IMG/VR virus record: IMGVR_UViG_3300025545_000003
Coordinates: 32,001-96,000 of that record
DNA: 64,000 bases
Origin: a virus
Strand: one strand, 5' to 3'
The position numbers and the translations under genes are program-made. Below the pieces are notes generated by a model, which saw nothing but the letters and a program-made list of their open reading frames with translations, had not been told where the DNA came from and ran no database searches. How positions within the stretch are numbered: the stretch's first letter is position 1; every line of letters starts with the position of its first letter. Below are positions 118-41,237 of the stretch, in pieces.

Positions 118-139
118 GGTCTTTGACAACTGAATAGTA
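118..139 (+). promoter_or_regulatory. rrn-type boxA-like antitermination site
   Basis: GGTCTTTGACAACTGAATAGTA; 21/22 identical copy before the second array at 42372-42393 (-). Confidence 0.65.
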
Positions 140-290
140 CGTGAAAACGCACCAACGAGGGCAGGGCGGGTCTAGCCCACTCGTCCTGCCCTCATTTTCA
201 TAATGAACCCGTGCCCCGGTGGGCACGGCCAATCCCCTAACGGGGCAAGGTCAAGCAGGCTCAACACCTGCCACGGGTTCCCATGTTCAT

Positions 291-367
291 GGTGGACGTA
301 GCTCAATAGGTAGAGCCCCGGGTTGTGATCCCGGTGGTTGCGGGTTCGAAGCCCGTCGTTCACCCCA
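291..367 (+). tRNA. tRNA-His(GTG)
   Basis: Cloverleaf with G-1, C73, loop TT-GTG-AT, CCA. Confidence 0.95.
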
Positions 368-380
368 TGAGAGGGGCTAA

Positions 381-463
381 GGTCTGGTGTCCCGCACGGA
401 GACGTGCAAAGGCAGCGTCGTCTAGGGTAGGCCACCCAACGATGACGGCGTTGTACTAGACCA
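381..463 (+). ncRNA. Small structured RNA candidate
   Basis: Closed by GGTCTGGTG/TACTAGACC with internal helices; lies between tRNAs. Confidence 0.4.
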
Positions 464-469
464 CATTAT

Positions 470-503
470 TCCGGCGAAGCTCATCTGGTAGAGCGGGCGG
501 TTG
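470..503 (+). pseudogene. 5' half of split tRNA (Asn-like)
   Basis: TCCGGCG acceptor plus D-arm; pairs with CGCCGGA at 1045-1051. Confidence 0.85.
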
Positions 504-529
504 ACAACCGAAGGGTCTTGCCTTACTTT
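501..529 (+). promoter_or_regulatory. sigma70-type promoter for the endonuclease
   Basis: TTGACA-N17-TACTTT just upstream of ATG 536. Confidence 0.5.
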
Positions 530-535
530 GAGGGC

Positions 536-946
536 ATGAACAAGAGCCCTAAAACTATCGGCGAGCGCAGTGAAGGCATGGTGCTGGCAGCCCTCTTGAG
601 GGCGGGCAAGGTTGTGTTGCAACCCTTCGGGGACAACCAACGGTACGACCTTGTGGTGGATGAGGATGGGAAATTCATCCGGGTCCAGTGCAAGACCGCC
701 CGCTTGAAGAACGGCGCTTTGGCCTTCGATACATGCTCCTCTCAAACCCATCGGGGGAAGGGGAAGCAAGATTACAGGGGGCAAGCGGACTTGTTTGGGG
801 TCTATTCTCCTGACAGGGACGCCGTGTACCTTGTACCCGTTGAGGATGTCGGGGTTACCCAAGCCCGACTCAGGCTGTCCAAACCTCGTAATGGCCAATC
901 CAAAGGCGTCCGCTTTGCGGCGGATTATCTTCTCGATCTGGGGTAG
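536..946 (+). CDS. PD-(D/E)XK homing endonuclease (I-Ssp6803I-like family)
   Basis: G..SE...PFGDNQRYDLVVD...RVQCKT motif; stop TAG = positions 8-10 of the following tRNA. Confidence 0.85.
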   Translation: MNKSPKTIGERSEGMVLAALLRAGKVVLQPFGDNQRYDLVVDEDGKFIRVQCKTARLKNGALAFDTCSSQTHRGKGKQDYRGQADLFGVYSPDRDAVYLVPVEDVGVTQARLRLSKPRNGQSKGVRFAADYLLDLG

Positions 947-1055: not shown

Positions 1056-1557
1056 GAAGGGCTGGCTGTTCCCTTTCGGGGGTTCAGTCTGTGACGGGCC
1101 GTATGGGGTCCGTAGGAAACATCGGAGCAATCCGGTGGAAGGGGAGTCCTTGTCACAGGCCCCCGCCAGTCACCTCTCGGGGTGGTTGGTCCGTCCATGC
1201 AAGCCGTAGGTAGCCCGGTCAGGGCGGGTCGTCCACCAAAGGCGGCTCTAGTCCCGAGTCTGGGGTTGGCCCCACCGACAGGTGGGTGAAGCATGGCCTG
1301 TCAGCGATGGCAGTCATGCGAAGGATAGGCGGGGACGCCTTGAGCCAACCAATCCAACTGGACGAAGGAGGATTCCCAAGCGGCAGTCGGTCAGTTTGAG
1401 GGGTGGGAGCCCTGAAGGCGGTCGGCATGTAGAGGGGCGAAGGGTGAAATCCCCGGAGTCCTGAAGACAGGGTAAAGCCCGCCGGGGCGAATACCAGAGG
1501 ACGTGTTGCATTCCCCTCCTCAAAAGGGAAGGGAACGACTGGCAGGGCACGCCCTTA
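1056..1557 (+). ncRNA. Large structured ncRNA, GOLLD-like
   Basis: ~500 nt without a credible ORF; ends pair (AAGGGC/GCCCTT); GCCAGTC/GACTGGC long-range helix; many tetraloop hairpins; phage tRNA-array context. Confidence 0.55.
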
Positions 1558-1562
1558 TGACA

Positions 1563-1635
1563 TGCGAATTAGCTCAGTTGGTAGAGCGCATCCTTCGTAG
1601 GGATGAGGTCGTTGGTTCAAGTCCAACCCTTGCAA
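1563..1635 (+). tRNA. tRNA-Thr(CGT), acceptor stem with two mismatches (possibly defective)
   Basis: Normal D/anticodon/T arms; TGCGAAT/CCTTGCA acceptor. Confidence 0.65.
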
Positions 1636-1639
1636 ACAA

Positions 1640-1940
1640 AGGAAAGACCCTGCCGGTCTGTGTGGTAAGTGACCTAATCCCGTCCCCGCAAGGGAAGGCG
1701 GGCCGGTGAAGCCCCCAAGGTGGAGCCGGTTGGTGGGAAGCTGAAGCGTAGGGGCGGCCACCCCTGCCGGATGTGGAAAGCCGATGCAGCACAGGCGACG
1801 AGGGAAACGCCACCCTCCAACAAAGGCGGTCACGACTGGCTACCGGGGAGACCCGGTGGACACGGGGAGAACTTGGCGGGGGACCGTCAAGGTAATGCCC
1901 TGAGAGGCCGGTTATGAAAACGGGTAGTCTCACCGTTCCT
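1640..1940 (+). ncRNA. ~300-nt structured ncRNA candidate
   Basis: Closed by AGGAA/TTCCT and AGAC/GTCT; many GNRA-capped hairpins; no credible ORF. Confidence 0.45.
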
Positions 1941-29461: not shown

Positions 29462-32125
29462 ATGGCCAAGCCAGCAGCGAAACAGGAACTCACCCCCGTT
29501 GTAAGGGGAGACCGCTACCGACGAACCCACAGGGCCTCCGTGATCGGTGTCCTGGGCCGTCAGGCTCCTCCCGTTCTCAGCCGGGGATCCATGTTCTACA
29601 ACCTTGACCGCTGGACTGCACGGGCGCTCGTGTCCGAGATGTGCCAGTGGGCCGGGAAGAACAGGGGCTGCACCCCCACAGCGAAGGACGTAGCCGACTG
29701 GGTCTCCAAGGCCAACAACATGACCGCCCCGGAGCGGTGCATCGTCATTGCCAACACACCCGACAAGCTGCCCCTCAAGGTAGCCCTTGGCCTGACCGGC
29801 GGGGCGTACCACGAGGCGTTCCACACGAAGTACTCCTGCCGCAGACCACTACAGGTGAAGGAGTGCGTGAACTTCATCCTGCCCCGTTGGGCGCTGGTGA
29901 AGGACTGGAGTGGGCTCCACAAGGCCCTCCAAGAGTGGAACAACATCATCGAGGACATACGCATCGAGCGCCGGGGCCGTGAGGACTACGAGGGTTCGCA
30001 CACGAAGCTGGCCGACTTGCAGGACTTCATCCTCGACAAGGAGGCCGCAGGCGTCGAACAGGTGCGCTCCCACGGGGGCAAGCCGGGAGCCTTGTCTGTG
30101 ATCGTCCGGGCGTTCCGTGACGTGGGTCTTGGGTACAACACCGAGCGCCAGCGTGAAGCCTTCGCCGAGTACAAGACGGACAACCCGGATGCCGTCGACC
30201 TTGTGATGACCGGCCCGCTGACCCCGATGCTTCAGGACACCATCGATCTGTCCGCCAAGGACGATCTCGGGTGCATCCGACTGGCGATGGACGTCGTTGC
30301 CAAGATCGGGGAGTTGGGCGGTATGGACGAGTCCGACGACAAGGCCCAGGACGGGCAGCACGGCGACGGGATGCAAACGTGCCCCGGTTGTGGCGCACCC
30401 GCCTCCAAGATCGTTGTACGGCCCCTCTCAGACGGCAAGGGAGGCAAGGTTCGGGGCAAGGGCCTCGCTACCTGCACGGCCTGTGGCCATCAGGAAGAGG
30501 TCGACGTCAAGAAGAAGTCTGCCGCCGATAAGGCCAAGGACAAGAAGGACAAGCAGGCGGGCAAGAAGTCCGCACCCGGCCCCAAGTTCGAAGGCTTCGA
30601 CGAGGACGACTTCGACGATGAAGGCGACGGTGGGGGCGAAGGTGAGGCCGGTGACGGTCAGGGTGGCTCCGGTTCGTCCGGTGGCAAGTCTGACGGGGAC
30701 GAGGACGGCGACGGTTCGTCCGGCTCCGGTGGAGACGAAGACGGCGATGACGACGGGGACGGCTCCGGGTCTGGGAAAGACGGCGATGAGGGTGACGAAG
30801 ACGGCGACGGTTCCAAGGACGGCAGCGACAAGGATGGCGATGCTGCCGGTGGCGATGGTGGTGACGGAGACGGGGACGGGGACGACGAGGGCAAGGACGG
30901 CAAGGCCGGACAGGGAGCCAATCAGGGAAGCGCCAGCCAGCACCAAGGCATCGACCAGCCGGACATAGGCCCGGACGGGAGCGACCAGTCGGGCGGGGCC
31001 GGGGGGCACCACCACGCCCAAGGCCCCCACGCAGGCAACGATCACAAGTGGGAGGACGTCGCCGAGCAGGCGTTGAACGACGCACAGTCCGGCAAGGACA
31101 CCCACGCCCTCGACAACAACAAGGCGCTGGAGAATGCGGTCAACGCTGCCGAGGACAAGGAAGACTCGGACACGGAGACCGGCGAGGCCCCGTGGAAGCC
31201 CTACAATCCGGGCCTCGATGAAGCGCTGCTGGTTCCTCATTCGGGCCGGGGCCGGGAACACGACATGGCCGAAGCCACGAAGCTGGTCAAGTCCGTTACG
31301 TCCGAGTCCGCCTACACGAGAGCCCGCCTGCGGAACATCGTCCGGGCACTGGAGATGACCAGCACTGTTCATGGCGTACAGCACGGGCGCAACCTGTCCA
31401 CCCGCTACCTCGTGGACTCCAAGGCGTGCCTGCGGGGCGGGGAGATGCCGAAGCGTCCCTACTACCGCAAGGGCTTGCAGACGGACATGTCGATGGCGGC
31501 AGCGGTTGTCGTGGACGAGTCCGGTTCGATGAGCGGGTGGCTGGCCGACGCCGCCCGGATCATGATCGCCATCACGGAGCCTCTGGACGCCCTCAACTGC
31601 CCGACACTGGCCTTGGGATTCAGGGACGGGCGTCGGGGAGGGCGGTACAACGACTACCGGACTGACCCGGACGAGGACGTCAAGAACCGCCTGTACCACC
31701 GCCATGAGGGCGTCATCTACGACATCTTCAAGCAGTGGCACGAAGGATTCCGCACCGTGAAGTGGCGCTTCGCCAACACGAGGGCCACTGGCGGCACCCC
31801 GATGTCCGACGGGATCCAGTACGCCCTCAACGCCATCTCCCTGCGGAGCGAAGCTCACCGCTTCGTGTTCGTAGTCACGGACGGTTGCCCCAACTACGGG
31901 CACGAGGCCGTGATCAAGCGGCAGATCCGCCTCGCCAAGCAGGCCAACATCCACGTCGTCGGGGTTGGGATGGGCTACGGAGCCAAGTACGTCGAGGCCC
32001 TGTTCGTGGACTCGGTCTACTCCGACAAGATCCCCGAGATCCCCAAGGGGCTCGTCGCCAAGATGAACGAACTGGTCGATGCCCGCACGGGACGCCGGGG
32101 CATGGTCTACAAAGACAAGGGCTAG
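29462..32125 (+). CDS. CobT-like vWA-domain protein with Asp/Gly-rich linker
   Basis: HEAFH, NIIEDIRIE, DESGSM MIDAS, GGTP, VTDG. Confidence 0.88.
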   Translation: MAKPAAKQELTPVVRGDRYRRTHRASVIGVLGRQAPPVLSRGSMFYNLDRWTARALVSEMCQWAGKNRGCTPTAKDVADWVSKANNMTAPERCIVIANTPDKLPLKVALGLTGGAYHEAFHTKYSCRRPLQVKECVNFILPRWALVKDWSGLHKALQEWNNIIEDIRIERRGREDYEGSHTKLADLQDFILDKEAAGVEQVRSHGGKPGALSVIVRAFRDVGLGYNTERQREAFAEYKTDNPDAVDLVMTGPLTPMLQDTIDLSAKDDLGCIRLAMDVVAKIGELGGMDESDDKAQDGQHGDGMQTCPGCGAPASKIVVRPLSDGKGGKVRGKGLATCTACGHQEEVDVKKKSAADKAKDKKDKQAGKKSAPGPKFEGFDEDDFDDEGDGGGEGEAGDGQGGSGSSGGKSDGDEDGDGSSGSGGDEDGDDDGDGSGSGKDGDEGDEDGDGSKDGSDKDGDAAGGDGGDGDGDGDDEGKDGKAGQGANQGSASQHQGIDQPDIGPDGSDQSGGAGGHHHAQGPHAGNDHKWEDVAEQALNDAQSGKDTHALDNNKALENAVNAAEDKEDSDTETGEAPWKPYNPGLDEALLVPHSGRGREHDMAEATKLVKSVTSESAYTRARLRNIVRALEMTSTVHGVQHGRNLSTRYLVDSKACLRGGEMPKRPYYRKGLQTDMSMAAAVVVDESGSMSGWLADAARIMIAITEPLDALNCPTLALGFRDGRRGGRYNDYRTDPDEDVKNRLYHRHEGVIYDIFKQWHEGFRTVKWRFANTRATGGTPMSDGIQYALNAISLRSEAHRFVFVVTDGCPNYGHEAVIKRQIRLAKQANIHVVGVGMGYGAKYVEALFVDSVYSDKIPEIPKGLVAKMNELVDARTGRRGMVYKDKG

Positions 32126-35423: not shown

Positions 35424-35789
35424 TGGTGGAGGTGCGGGGAATCGAACCCCGGTCCTAAGATGCCTACGCCAACGCACTACGCTCATTTCCCGTGTTTATC
35501 CCGCACGGGCAAGGTGCTTCGATCCTCAACGCACATGCTGCTGTTAGTCATCGCCTTCAGGTAGCCGCCTGCCCGCTATCCTGAACGCCAACCCGTTTCT
35601 GCTGTAACCTCACGCCCCGAATCGGGTGCTCTGACGTGAGAATGAAGCACCAGCACAGTCTTTCGACTACGCTGCCGCCTGCATCGGAAGGGTCTCGTTG
35701 GCAATTAAGCCTTTGCCGTCTGTAACGCCCGACAGCACTCGGAACGAACGTTTAGCCTCGTACACCCCAGTCGAAACCAGTACACCCCC
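35424..35789 (-). ncRNA. ssrA: tmRNA, tag ANETLPMQAAA*
   Basis: GGGGGTG..TTCGAC 5' end; Ala-type acceptor with T-arm and ACCA; tag frame GCC AAC GAG...GCG TAG. Confidence 0.93.
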
Positions 35790-38928: not shown

Positions 38929-38979
38929 TGCGACCGGGGGGAGTCGAACCCCCACGCCTCAAAGGCACCGGATTCTAAG
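38929..38979 (-). pseudogene. 3' half of split tRNA-Leu(TAG)
   Basis: CTTAGAA-TCCGG, variable arm, T-arm, CGGTCGC-A. Confidence 0.88.
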
Positions 38980-39059
38980 TGGCTGAGGTGGGAGTCGAAC
39001 CCACACGCCCTAAGCGCCCGCCTCTAAAACGGGTGCGTCTACCGTTCCGCCACTCAGCC
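38980..39059 (-). tRNA. tRNA-Leu(TAG), replacement copy
   Basis: Cloverleaf; HNH stop lies within its acceptor stem. Confidence 0.92.
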
Positions 39060-39554
39060 TTTTTCTTGTTTGGTCACGGAGGTCAACCCTTTGCTATTAC
39101 ACCACCCAGGTTGTTGGGAGTGGCAGTTAGGGCACAGGAATCGTAAGTTTTCAGGGCGGTTGTCTAACCAGTCTCGGTTGATGTGGTCCACCTGTAGCAT
39201 GAGGGGTTTCCCGACCCACACTCCCTCGATCCCACAAGATTCGCACGCATAGGGCCGCCCACTGTCAAGGAGAGCCCTCCGTAAGCGGTACGCTGCGGTA
39301 CGCCTCCCTGTGTCCTTCTTTGACAGGGTAGTTAGCCACGGAGTCTTTCCCGGGCCTCCCTTATGGGCTGTTCCCTTGTTGGATCCTTGACCGTGGAAAT
39401 GGACTGTGTCGAGTCCGTATTCCCGTACCTTACGGGTGATGTGCGTTTGTGTCCCGCCCGCCTGTTTCACCCCCAAATCTCGAAGCACGCCCGCCATGGA
39501 AGTGTTCTGTTGAACAAGTGGGGCTAGGATCTCTTTTGTGTAACGTCGTCCCAT
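39054..39554 (-). CDS. HNH homing endonuclease
   Basis: CESCG..LQVDHINRDWLDNRPENLRFLCPNCHSQ. Confidence 0.9.
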   Translation of the reverse strand: MGRRYTKEILAPLVQQNTSMAGVLRDLGVKQAGGTQTHITRKVREYGLDTVHFHGQGSNKGTAHKGGPGKTPWLTTLSKKDTGRRTAAYRLRRALLDSGRPYACESCGIEGVWVGKPLMLQVDHINRDWLDNRPENLRFLCPNCHSQQPGWCNSKGLTSVTKQEKG

Positions 39555-39586
39555 ACACAGCTTACGGTATAGGCTAGCAACCGGAA

Positions 39587-39616
39587 CCGGCGTGTCTACC
39601 GTTTCACCACGGTCGC
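39587..39616 (-). pseudogene. 5' half of split tRNA-Leu(TAG)
   Basis: GCGACCG-TGGTGAAACGGTAGACAC-GCCGG. Confidence 0.88.
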
Positions 39617-39621
39617 AAAGG

Positions 39622-40465
39622 ATGACCACCCGTAGCCGGGATCCTGTTTTATGGACACATTCATCTAGTGGCCCCTACCCGTCCGCATAGCGCTGCTCAC
39701 CCGCTCTTGGCCCAACCCCGATGCCGAGAGCGTTGCCCTGAAAAGAGCTTCTGCATTCCTTGGCGTGTAAGGCCGTGACGTTGGCAGAACAGATTGAGGG
39801 ACGGGGTCACTTCGTGTTCAGCCCCGTCAGGAGAACGGACTTTGGGGTAGGGCTGCTTCTTCTTAGTGCGGCTGATCGCCGCCTTTTCCGCTTCCGTTGG
39901 GGAAGCCTTCCGACCACCCGATCCCACAGCGTTCTTATTGCCCCGCTGCAAAAGTGACAGGGCTTGCTTCGTTTCTTCTGTATGCTTGTAACCCAGGCTG
40001 TTGCCTGCTTCTGGGAGGATGTTGTACTTCTTGGCTTTCGGGGTCTTGTCCAACCACTCCTGTTCCTTCTCCAAGAGCTTGTCGTGGGCCGCCTGAACAA
40101 GCACAAAGAAGCAAATGTCCTCTTCACCCCTCTTGGCAAAGGCTCGTTGTAAGGGGGTGTTATGGTGGGTGCCTTTTCGAAGAAGCCTCCCATGTGCTGA
40201 GAACCTCTTGTAGAGATCCACTGCGGACCCGATGTAGAGCTTCCCCGAAGCCCTACTTCTGATGGCATAGACACCGCTCTTACCGTGTAGCGCAGAATAA
40301 GGGGTACCTTTCATGGAAGGGTCCAATTTCATAGGCCAAAGATACCACGTTCCTGTTTGGGTTGCACCCTCGGAAGTGCGAACGGCCTACGGCCTCCTTC
40401 CTTCAGCAGTGGTGTCCCGAGCTTCCTCACATCCCTTGCGGGGTAGTGCGTGCCCTCAGTGGTCA
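39622..40465 (-). ncRNA. rnpB: Minimal RNase P RNA interrupted by a GIY-YIG ORF
   Basis: P1 TGACCAC/GTGGTCA; GAGGAAGCTCGGG..CACC; GGGTGCAACCCAAA; GGGTAGG..CTAGATGAATG..ACAGGATCCCGGCTAC. Confidence 0.8.
39697..40332 (-). CDS. GIY-YIG homing endonuclease
   Basis: SGVYAI..LYIGSA..R...H..HHN..LQ..EQEWLD..YN; NUMOD3-like KHTEETK. Confidence 0.93.
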   Translation of the reverse strand: MKLDPSMKGTPYSALHGKSGVYAIRSRASGKLYIGSAVDLYKRFSAHGRLLRKGTHHNTPLQRAFAKRGEEDICFFVLVQAAHDKLLEKEQEWLDKTPKAKKYNILPEAGNSLGYKHTEETKQALSLLQRGNKNAVGSGGRKASPTEAEKAAISRTKKKQPYPKVRSPDGAEHEVTPSLNLFCQRHGLTRQGMQKLFSGQRSRHRGWAKSG

Positions 40466-40550
40466 TGGTGCCAGAGGGGGGACTCGAACCCCCACGCCTC
40501 AAGGACAGACGGTTTTGAACCGACCGCGTCTACCATTCCGCCACTCTGGC
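40466..40550 (-). tRNA. tRNA-Leu(CAA)
   Basis: Cloverleaf, CCA. Confidence 0.93.
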
Positions 40551-40651: not shown

Positions 40652-40723
40652 TGGAAAGGGGTGGAATCGAACCACCGACACGGGGATTTTCAGTCCCCTG
40701 CTCTACCTCTGAGCTACCCCTCC
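40652..40723 (-). tRNA. tRNA-Phe(GAA)
   Basis: Cloverleaf. Confidence 0.95.
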
Positions 40724-41124
40724 ATGCGTTTCCAGTCCCCGAACTCCTCCTTGCCGCCCCTGCACCCCCAGTCCGAGTCGATGACCAGGCGGGACGAGAT
40801 CCCGCCACGGGGCCGGAGGTCCGCTACGAGGCGCAACCGGGCCGGTTCATAGACCGCCACGAGATCCTCGTAGATGACGTTGATGAGGCGTTCGTAGGAG
40901 ATCACCTTGGACCTGAAGGCCACCACGTACTCCTTGAGTGCCTTCAGTTCGATGATCCAGTCCGCCGGGTAGAAGACCAACGTCAGGTGACCGAAGTCCG
41001 GTTGCTGTTTGACGCCCATGAACGTCAACTCCGGGATCTCCATCCTGATCTCGTACCCGTCTGGGTCGGGGTTCGGCAGCCTCTTCAGCTTGTCCTTCTC
41101 CGACCACTTGTCATGCTTGCCCAT
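40714..41124 (-). CDS. QueF-like T-fold protein lacking the catalytic Cys
   Basis: PE.T.....QPDF..IELKALKEY..FR...ISYE..N.I..DL...PRGGI. Confidence 0.85.
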   Translation of the reverse strand: MGKHDKWSEKDKLKRLPNPDPDGYEIRMEIPELTFMGVKQQPDFGHLTLVFYPADWIIELKALKEYVVAFRSKVISYERLINVIYEDLVAVYEPARLRLVADLRPRGGISSRLVIDSDWGCRGGKEEFGDWKRMEG

Positions 41125-41163
41125 GTCGTTCCCCCTTGTTGTCCGGGGAACTATACCGATCAG

Positions 41164-41237
41164 TGCCAAGGGGCGGGATCGAACCGCCGACACCCCGGAT
41201 TTCACCCGAGTGCTCTACCTACCTGAGCTACCTTGGC
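41164..41237 (-). tRNA. tRNA-Phe(GAA)
   Basis: Cloverleaf. Confidence 0.88.

Follow-up and report, generated by a model that had tools for sequence, protein, structure and literature searches.

Whether a ribozyme that does not splice can host a selfish protein gene is a testable question posed by a locus in a 64-kb stretch of viral DNA, positions 32,001 to 96,000 of IMG/VR record IMGVR_UViG_3300025545_000003 (this whole stretch is referred to below as the window). The ribozyme concerned is ribonuclease P (RNase P) RNA, one of the two universal ribozymes; RNase P trims new tRNAs. On the minus strand of the window, within a tRNA array and directly after a gene for tRNA-Leu(CAA), a mini RNase P RNA lies in two halves that span positions 40466-39622, a total of 845 nucleotides (nt) including an insert that carries a gene for a GIY-YIG homing endonuclease. 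Both the RNA and the kind of insert that it carries are identified here with high confidence. The record itself is 106.8 kb long and is rated by CheckV at only ~20% completeness, and it is therefore a fragment of a very large phage. The parts of the locus are as follows.

40353-40466, minus strand: the 114-nt 5' part of the mini RNase P RNA, matching positions 1-91 of the family model described below and cut at its 3' end
39712-40352, minus strand: insert of 641 bp, a free-standing homing endonuclease cassette, the deletion of which restores colinearity with relatives
39697-40332, minus strand: open reading frame (ORF) of a GIY-YIG homing endonuclease of the I-TevI type, 211 amino acids from the ATG at 40332, or 205 amino acids from the ATG at 40314 chosen by gene callers
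39622-39711, minus strand: the 90-nt 3' part of the mini RNase P RNA, matching positions 65-155 of the family model and cut at its 5' end

The two RNA segments were identified with a covariance model (R1) of a 155-position core, which was built from 24 uninterrupted phage and metagenome relatives, none of them from the window. The model matches the 5' half at 40430-40340 with 66.6 bits (E = 4.9e-16) and the 3' half at 39725-39632 with 40.9 bits (E = 2.2e-10). These matches cover complementary parts of the model, and there are no others in the 64-kb window or the 106.8-kb record. Intact family members score between 50 and 166 bits with the same model. Once the insert is removed, the joined RNA is 204 nt long and aligns end to end with the uninterrupted relatives L084, L023, and L104, with 76 to 78% identity over the core and a gap of no more than 2 nt at the junction.

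In IMG/VR and in metagenome contigs from JGI, pattern scans retrieved ~47 distinct short relatives of 195 to 260 nt, and the loci that were checked (L004, L023, L084, and L104) sit among tRNA genes. Among phage records, blastn returned a single match, which involves the 5' half and lies in the 642-kb uncultured phage LR756502.1. This homologue is uninterrupted, measures 205 nt, and is covered over its full span by the Rfam archaeal RNase P model (E = 7e-7) with the specificity domain (S-domain) deleted. Relatives L023 and L084 match RF00010 over the full span of the model with 52 bits (E = 1.5e-13), and L001 matches RF00373 likewise over the full span (E = 7e-7). The gathering score of RF00010 is 100 bits, and the gathering score of an Rfam RNase P model is reached by neither the window nor its relatives. 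The RNA, whose closest uninterrupted relatives (L084 and L023, 78% identical over the core) score 52 bits, is therefore homologous to RNase P RNA but stands outside every Rfam family by Rfam's own threshold. With the insert in place, the window gives no RNase P match in Rfam at gathering or at E values up to 10, because the insert breaks up the RNA.

The pairing scheme of RNase P was written onto an alignment of 24 cores (A2) and the pairs were counted. In this alignment, 93.3% of the cells are paired, versus 30 to 43% when the partners are slid, and 23 of 33 pairs change on both sides; the observed values were reached by none of 500 shuffles. The covariation covers P4, P5, the stub hairpin that stands in the place of the S-domain, P15, P16, P17, and the P6 pseudoknot. 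P2 was tested by script, which showed that the complement of the five bases after conserved region IV (CR-IV) is present in the 5' region of 20 to 23 of the 24 sequences, versus 0 to 9 for slid windows.

The elements of the RNA were placed by direct reading of the minus strand, with motifs located by script.

40466-40459 (AUGACCAC) with 39629-39622 (GUGGUCAU), minus strand: P1
40455-40450 (GGGCAC) with 39658-39653 (GUGUCC), minus strand: P2
40448-40428, minus strand: P3 hairpin
40428-40422 (GAGGAAG), minus strand: conserved region I (CR-I)
40423-40416 (AGC(U)CGGG) with 39640-39634 (CCCGGCU), minus strand: P4, with a bulged U at 40420
40414-40411 (CACC) with 40368-40365 (GGUG), minus strand: P5
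40409-40405 (CUGCU) with 39697-39693 (AGCAG), minus strand: P6 pseudoknot, 5 bp
40401-40372, minus strand: stub hairpin of 30 nt in the place of the S-domain
40365-40353 (GCAA-CCC-AAACAG), minus strand: J5/15, the 5' strand of P15 (CCC, 40361-40359), and the 5' side of L15 (AAACAG, 40358-40353)
39712-39709 (GGCC) with 39684-39681 (GGAC), minus strand: P16
39705-39702 (AGCG) with 39692-39689 (CGCU), minus strand: P17, 4 bp, with loop GGUGAGCAG, which includes the 3' strand of P6
39680-39676 (GGGUA) and 39675-39673 (GGG), minus strand: 3' side of L15 and 3' strand of P15
39666-39658 (AGAUGAAUG), minus strand: CR-IV
39647-39641 (ACAGGAU), minus strand: conserved region V (CR-V)

The joined 204-nt sequence can form P1, P2, P4 with its bulged U, P5, P6, the stub, P15, P16, and P17, and P17 (4 bp), P6 (5 bp), and P15 (3 bp) are intact. 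A total of 42 nt separates the two strands of P5 and holds the single 30-nt hairpin, whereas P7 to P14, with conserved regions II and III (CR-II and CR-III), are absent. The motif ACAGGAUCCCGGCUA was confirmed as well as CR-IV. When the window is read against the alignment of cores, the bases that are invariant in the family are kept in CR-I, P4, P5, the GGAG of the stub, GCAAC, the GGU and GGC of L15/P15, CR-IV, and CR-V. On these features of its sequence (P1 to P6, P15 to P17, CR-I, CR-IV, CR-V, and the GGU of L15), the predicted catalytic domain is of the bacterial type A. The minimum-energy fold of the 204-nt RNA was uninformative (z = -0.6).

A sequence-only reading of the locus had proposed that core elements, among them P1, P4, P5, and P15, flank the ORF, that the S-domain is reduced to a hairpin of ~35 nt, that P18 is absent, and that a core of ~210 nt is left. 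All of the named elements were found on the minus strand at the place proposed, no hairpin occupies the P18 position, and the hairpin and the core came out slightly smaller, at 30 and 204 nt. The same reading had the P6 partner AGCAG begin at the stop codon of the ORF, and this strand indeed overlaps the last base of the UGA. Its placement of the gene, however, did not hold. The gene had been described as looped out of P16/P17, whereas alignments to the family model and pairwise comparison agree in locating the insert at the L15/P16 junction, where it separates the 5' side of L15 from the 5' strand of P16. Colinearity of the 5' flank with L084, L023, and L104 extends to AAACAG(G), and the RNA resumes at (G)GCC-AAG-AGCG-GGUGAGCAG-CGCU, which corresponds to the 5' strands of P16 and P17 followed by the P17 loop. 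The boundaries are ambiguous within a GG dinucleotide. The insert thus comes directly after the block in which the RNA is most conserved (GGUGCAAC-CC-AAACAG).

The insert consists of a 20-nt leader (40352-40333) followed by the ORF, so that 621 of its 641 bases are coding and no noncoding base lies downstream. The last five codons of the ORF (UGG GCC AAG AGC GGG) and its UGA stop are sequence of the RNase P gene, with 16 nt of overlap. The stop (39699-39697) is the UGA of a conserved motif of the P17 loop (GGUGAGCA), and its last base is shared with the 3' strand of P6. Because the last codons of the ORF contain the 5' strands of P16 and P17, through which the frame reads, the gene is not simply looped out of the tip of the P16/P17 arm. 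A helix that would close the ORF, formed by CUUUGGCC (40341-40334) with GGCCAAGAG (39712-39704), was considered and rejected, as it competes with P16/P17 and its duplex energy is no better than that of shuffled sequences.

The encoded protein bears out the proposal of a homing endonuclease gene, which looks intact. It matches the Pfam GIY-YIG domain (PF01541) with an E value of 3.5e-11 and the PHROG homing endonuclease category with 1e-18, while a match to NUMOD3 is borderline, just under the cut-off. It aligns to the catalytic domain of I-TevI (1MK0/1LN0) with an E value of 2e-11, and Y22, Y33, R43, H47, E90, and N104 of the ORF correspond to Y6, Y17, R27, H31, E75, and N90 of I-TevI. The C-terminal part is weakly similar to a chain of I-HmuI. 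The G+C content at third codon positions (GC3) is 0.63 for this ORF and 0.60 for a neighboring gene for an HNH endonuclease, versus 0.79 ± 0.09 for the long ORFs of the phage; low values in both nuclease genes are as expected for imported selfish genes. An identical protein is recorded from 54 contigs. None of the more distant nuclease relatives (at most 46% identity, at 50 viral loci) adjoins a mini RNase P RNA, and no tRNA genes were found at the 12 best of these loci that were scanned; the lineage to which the nuclease belongs is therefore not tied to this target. A search of IMG/VR by exact pattern retrieved no insert-free allele of the window gene and no allele with an identical junction.

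The explanation that best accounts for this arrangement starts from a free-standing, I-TevI-like GIY-YIG gene that would have arrived by homing as a 641-bp element, after the most conserved block of the RNase P RNA gene. Homing is inferred from the anatomy of the locus together with the precedent of an allele pair in the family (L103 and L111, described below). The transcript of the tRNA array would then carry the 845-nt RNA, in which P1, P2, P4, P6, P15, and P16 would pair across the insert. The catalytic core would assemble with the message protruding as an additional arm from the L15/P16 junction or, alternatively, would work as two pieces after host RNases cut the message, and the ribozyme, together with the host RnpA protein, would trim the ~50 tRNAs of the phage. 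For this explanation as a whole, retained activity included, the case for and the case against appear equally strong, and on the sequence the chances that the interrupted ribozyme is active are likewise about even. A more specific version, in which the 845-nt transcript is message and enzyme at once, either active with a 641-nt nuclease mRNA at the L15/P16 junction or a natural two-piece ribozyme, is put forward tentatively, at somewhat less than an even chance. The same guarded standing applies to its corollary that the nuclease gene may rely on the ribozyme gene to supply its final codons and its stop.

That the flanks resemble RNase P RNA by chance, or belong to some other RNA of tRNA arrays, would agree with the failure of every Rfam RNase P model to reach gathering, on the window and on the relatives alike. 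This possibility is nevertheless exceedingly remote, given E values of 5e-16 and 2e-10 from an independent family model, full-span matches of relatives to RF00010 at 1.5e-13, and covariation that follows the helix plan of RNase P down to the bulged U of P4 and the P6 pseudoknot. It is also very improbable, if slightly less so, that the insert is an overlooked self-splicing or otherwise excised intron, with a continuous 204-nt mature RNA. GIY-YIG enzymes of the I-TevI type are often encoded in introns, and some database relatives of this one are labelled group I intron endonucleases. Yet the only noncoding part of the insert is the 20-nt leader, which excludes a group I or group II intron core on space alone, and the ORF runs on for 16 nt into the RNA gene. 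Between 39550 and 40520, Rfam shows no intron family at E values up to 10. The intron reading (group I or II) was therefore rejected, and the absence of an intron around the gene was upheld.

More serious is the possibility that the anatomy is as described but the ribozyme is dead, the endonuclease having recently disrupted an accessory gene; the phage would then use the RNase P of its host, and the two halves would simply not yet have decayed. This reading has a substantial chance of being correct, although one short of even. The hosts own an RNase P, so the phage copy may be dispensable. Several observations weigh in the same direction, against continued activity. The insertion adjoins L15, the functionally sensitive loop that binds the 3' end of tRNA, and is not at the tip of a hairpin. 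In P16 (GGCC/GGAC), one position forms a G.A mismatch, although all 24 relatives have a pair there. The helix that would close the insert is not significant, 101 of 300 shuffles being as good, and folding the full 845 nt gives a result no better than shuffled sequences do (z = -0.27). The GC3 of the ORF, well under that of the phage, suggests a recent arrival, so the intact halves are no proof of continued selection. No gene for RnpA was found in the 107 kb of the record, and Rfam gave nothing significant on the separate halves (8.5 bits and E = 0.44 for the 5' half with RF00010, and at best 4.8 bits with RF00373 in the search by single halves). A search of the 106.8-kb record, which is only ~20% of the genome, found no second, intact mini RNase P copy.

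Retained activity has its own support. The family-invariant bases of the conserved blocks are intact, as are P1, P2, P4, P5, P6, P15, and P17. The presence of the identical endonuclease on 54 contigs suggests that the arrangement persists. The P16/P17 arm is naturally variable and is absent from type B and many other RNase P RNAs, and type B RNAs have an extra helix, P15.1, at about the place of the insert. Within the family, inserts have so far been found at variable, peripheral places (L002 and L103) and none in the core, as would be expected if selection filters the sites. Moreover, nuclease cassettes in the tRNA genes of this phage carry replacements for what they destroy. Also counted in favor of activity are reports that separate pieces can be reassembled into RNase P RNAs (PMC6783828) and that the catalytic domain (C-domain) of RNase P alone is catalytic (PMC5839562).

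The inserts elsewhere in the family show what such RNAs receive. In L103, an AT-rich metagenome contig, a mini RNase P RNA contains a 661-bp GIY-YIG cassette (134-794, minus strand) at the P18 site, between GGCAU, which follows the 3' strand of P15, and AGAUAAAUG of CR-IV, where other members have optional hairpins. Its ORF encodes 216 amino acids with a LEM-3-like GIY-YIG domain (Pfam, 4e-10), and the insert ends exactly with the stop codon. L111 has the same RNA without the insert, and 227 of 234 flanking bases are identical (97%); as aligned, the two are a presence/absence pair of the kind that homing produces. The mini RNase P RNA at L002:10611-10997 (plus strand) has an AT-rich noncoding hairpin of ~170 to 190 nt between P16 and P17, a natural expansion of the P16/P17 arm. 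From L103 and L002 it follows that large inserts at variable outer positions are tolerated in the family, or at the least are received repeatedly. At L017:209-863 (minus strand), in a metagenome contig, a partial copy of the 5' region of a full-size RNase P RNA gene of the cellular type lies ahead of the gene itself, such that GAUGACGAACCGAGGAAGGUCCGGACUCC occurs twice, ~240 nt apart.

Among known RNAs, the closest design is that of the bacterial type A RNase P RNA (rnpB, the M1 RNA of E. coli; RF00010). Both have P1 to P5 with GAGGAAG leading into a P4 with a bulged U, GCAA in J5/15, P15 with the GGU of L15, P16/P17 with the P6 pseudoknot, CR-IV AGAUGAAUG, and a CR-V of the form ACAGnAUCC..GGCUA. 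The phage RNA differs in that a 30-nt hairpin replaces P7 to P14 with CR-II and CR-III and P18 is missing, so that it measures ~204 nt as opposed to ~377 nt and scores below Rfam gathering. It is, in addition, encoded by a phage within a tRNA array and interrupted by a protein gene.

The sequence-only reading had instead drawn a comparison with the type T RNase P RNA of Pyrobaculum and other Thermoproteaceae (RF02357). That RNA is ~200 nt long, is missing almost its entire S-domain, and is described as catalytically active in the source as cited (Lai et al. 2010, PMC3012483, cited in PMC7191817). The parallel holds for the reduction of the S-domain but is an analogy only, as type T has an archaeal-type core that works with archaeal proteins, whereas the phage core is bacterial type A with a bacterial L15 GGU and P6/P16/P17. 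The sole match of RF02357 to the window, at 39873-39935 inside the ORF, is spurious (14.3 bits, E = 1.7). The likeness to type T is convergent reduction and not membership.

The insert also has partial counterparts. SegB of phage T4 (PMC2330249) is likewise a free-standing GIY-YIG endonuclease of a phage tRNA region and moves without an intron, but its gene lies between tRNA genes, whereas the nuclease gene of the window is contained in a ribozyme gene, with which it has its last codons and stop in common. I-TevI has the same type of catalytic domain and is carried by a self-splicing intron, whereas the window nuclease is carried by none. Protein-encoding insertions that are not introns are described in the rRNA genes of the candidate phyla radiation (CPR)/Patescibacteria, according to a summary of Brown et al. 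2015 in PMC9698310. These resemble the window locus in that a protein gene sits at a tolerated position of a structural RNA gene with no recognizable intron; they differ in that they concern cellular rRNA rather than a phage ribozyme gene, and in nuclease lineage and insertion logic, the ORF of the window being fused to the UGA of the RNA gene itself.

In the available portions of the literature, including a comprehensive review of 2024 and papers on RNase P annotation, no description of a virus-encoded RNase P RNA was found. A full-text literature search likewise yielded no paper describing a homing endonuclease inside an RNase P RNA, and no published name was found for the family of phage mini RNase P RNAs. 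New here are the insertion at the L15/P16 junction and the codons and stop that the nuclease and ribozyme genes have in common. A family of ~200 nt with only a catalytic domain offers a natural experiment on the minimal RNA for 5' processing of tRNA, and its occurrence suggests that large phages carry their own predicted tRNA maturation enzyme along with their tRNAs. Should the 845-nt transcript prove to be both message and enzyme, phage mini RNase P RNAs would be a non-splicing safe harbor for homing endonucleases, as self-splicing introns are elsewhere.

The mini RNase P gene is closely packed between two tRNA genes.

40466-40550, minus strand: tRNA-Leu(CAA), called by ARAGORN and by the Rfam tRNA model; it is immediately upstream, and its encoded 3' CCA stops where P1 starts
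38929-39616, minus strand: tRNA-Leu(TAG) interrupted by an ORF for an HNH endonuclease (assigned by Pfam and PHROG); it is the downstream neighbor, 5 nt past P1

No promoter-like or terminator-like sites were found inside the gene, and the whole stretch is probably transcribed together with the tRNA array. The outer halves of the split tRNA-Leu(TAG), at 39616-39587 and 38980-38929, are called as tRNA-Leu(tag) by ARAGORN when joined. The split falls in the anticodon stem, and a complete second tRNA-Leu(TAG) lies inside the element at 38979-39059. The HNH element thus destroys a tRNA-Leu(TAG) gene yet supplies a replacement tRNA, whereas the cassette in the RNase P gene of the same array brings no replacement copy.

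By Rfam, the window contains ~50 tRNA genes, one transfer-messenger RNA (tmRNA), and one GOLLD RNA. In bacterial RNase P enzymes, the GGU of L15 pairs with the 3' CCA of tRNA; this GGU is retained in the mini RNase P RNA, yet of the 51 tRNA genes that ARAGORN calls in the window only 15 encode a 3' CCA. A gene for a QueF-like protein (Pfam, 7e-21) at 40714-41205 (minus strand) is wedged amid the tRNAs of the array and overlaps tRNA-Phe calls at both ends. The GOLLD RNA, at 1496-1936 (plus strand), scores 154 bits, just over gathering, and lies in a plus-strand tRNA array with a tRNA embedded in it at 1563-1635. The phage-encoded tmRNA is located at 35424-35789 (minus strand), and ARAGORN reads its tag peptide as ANETLPMQAAA.

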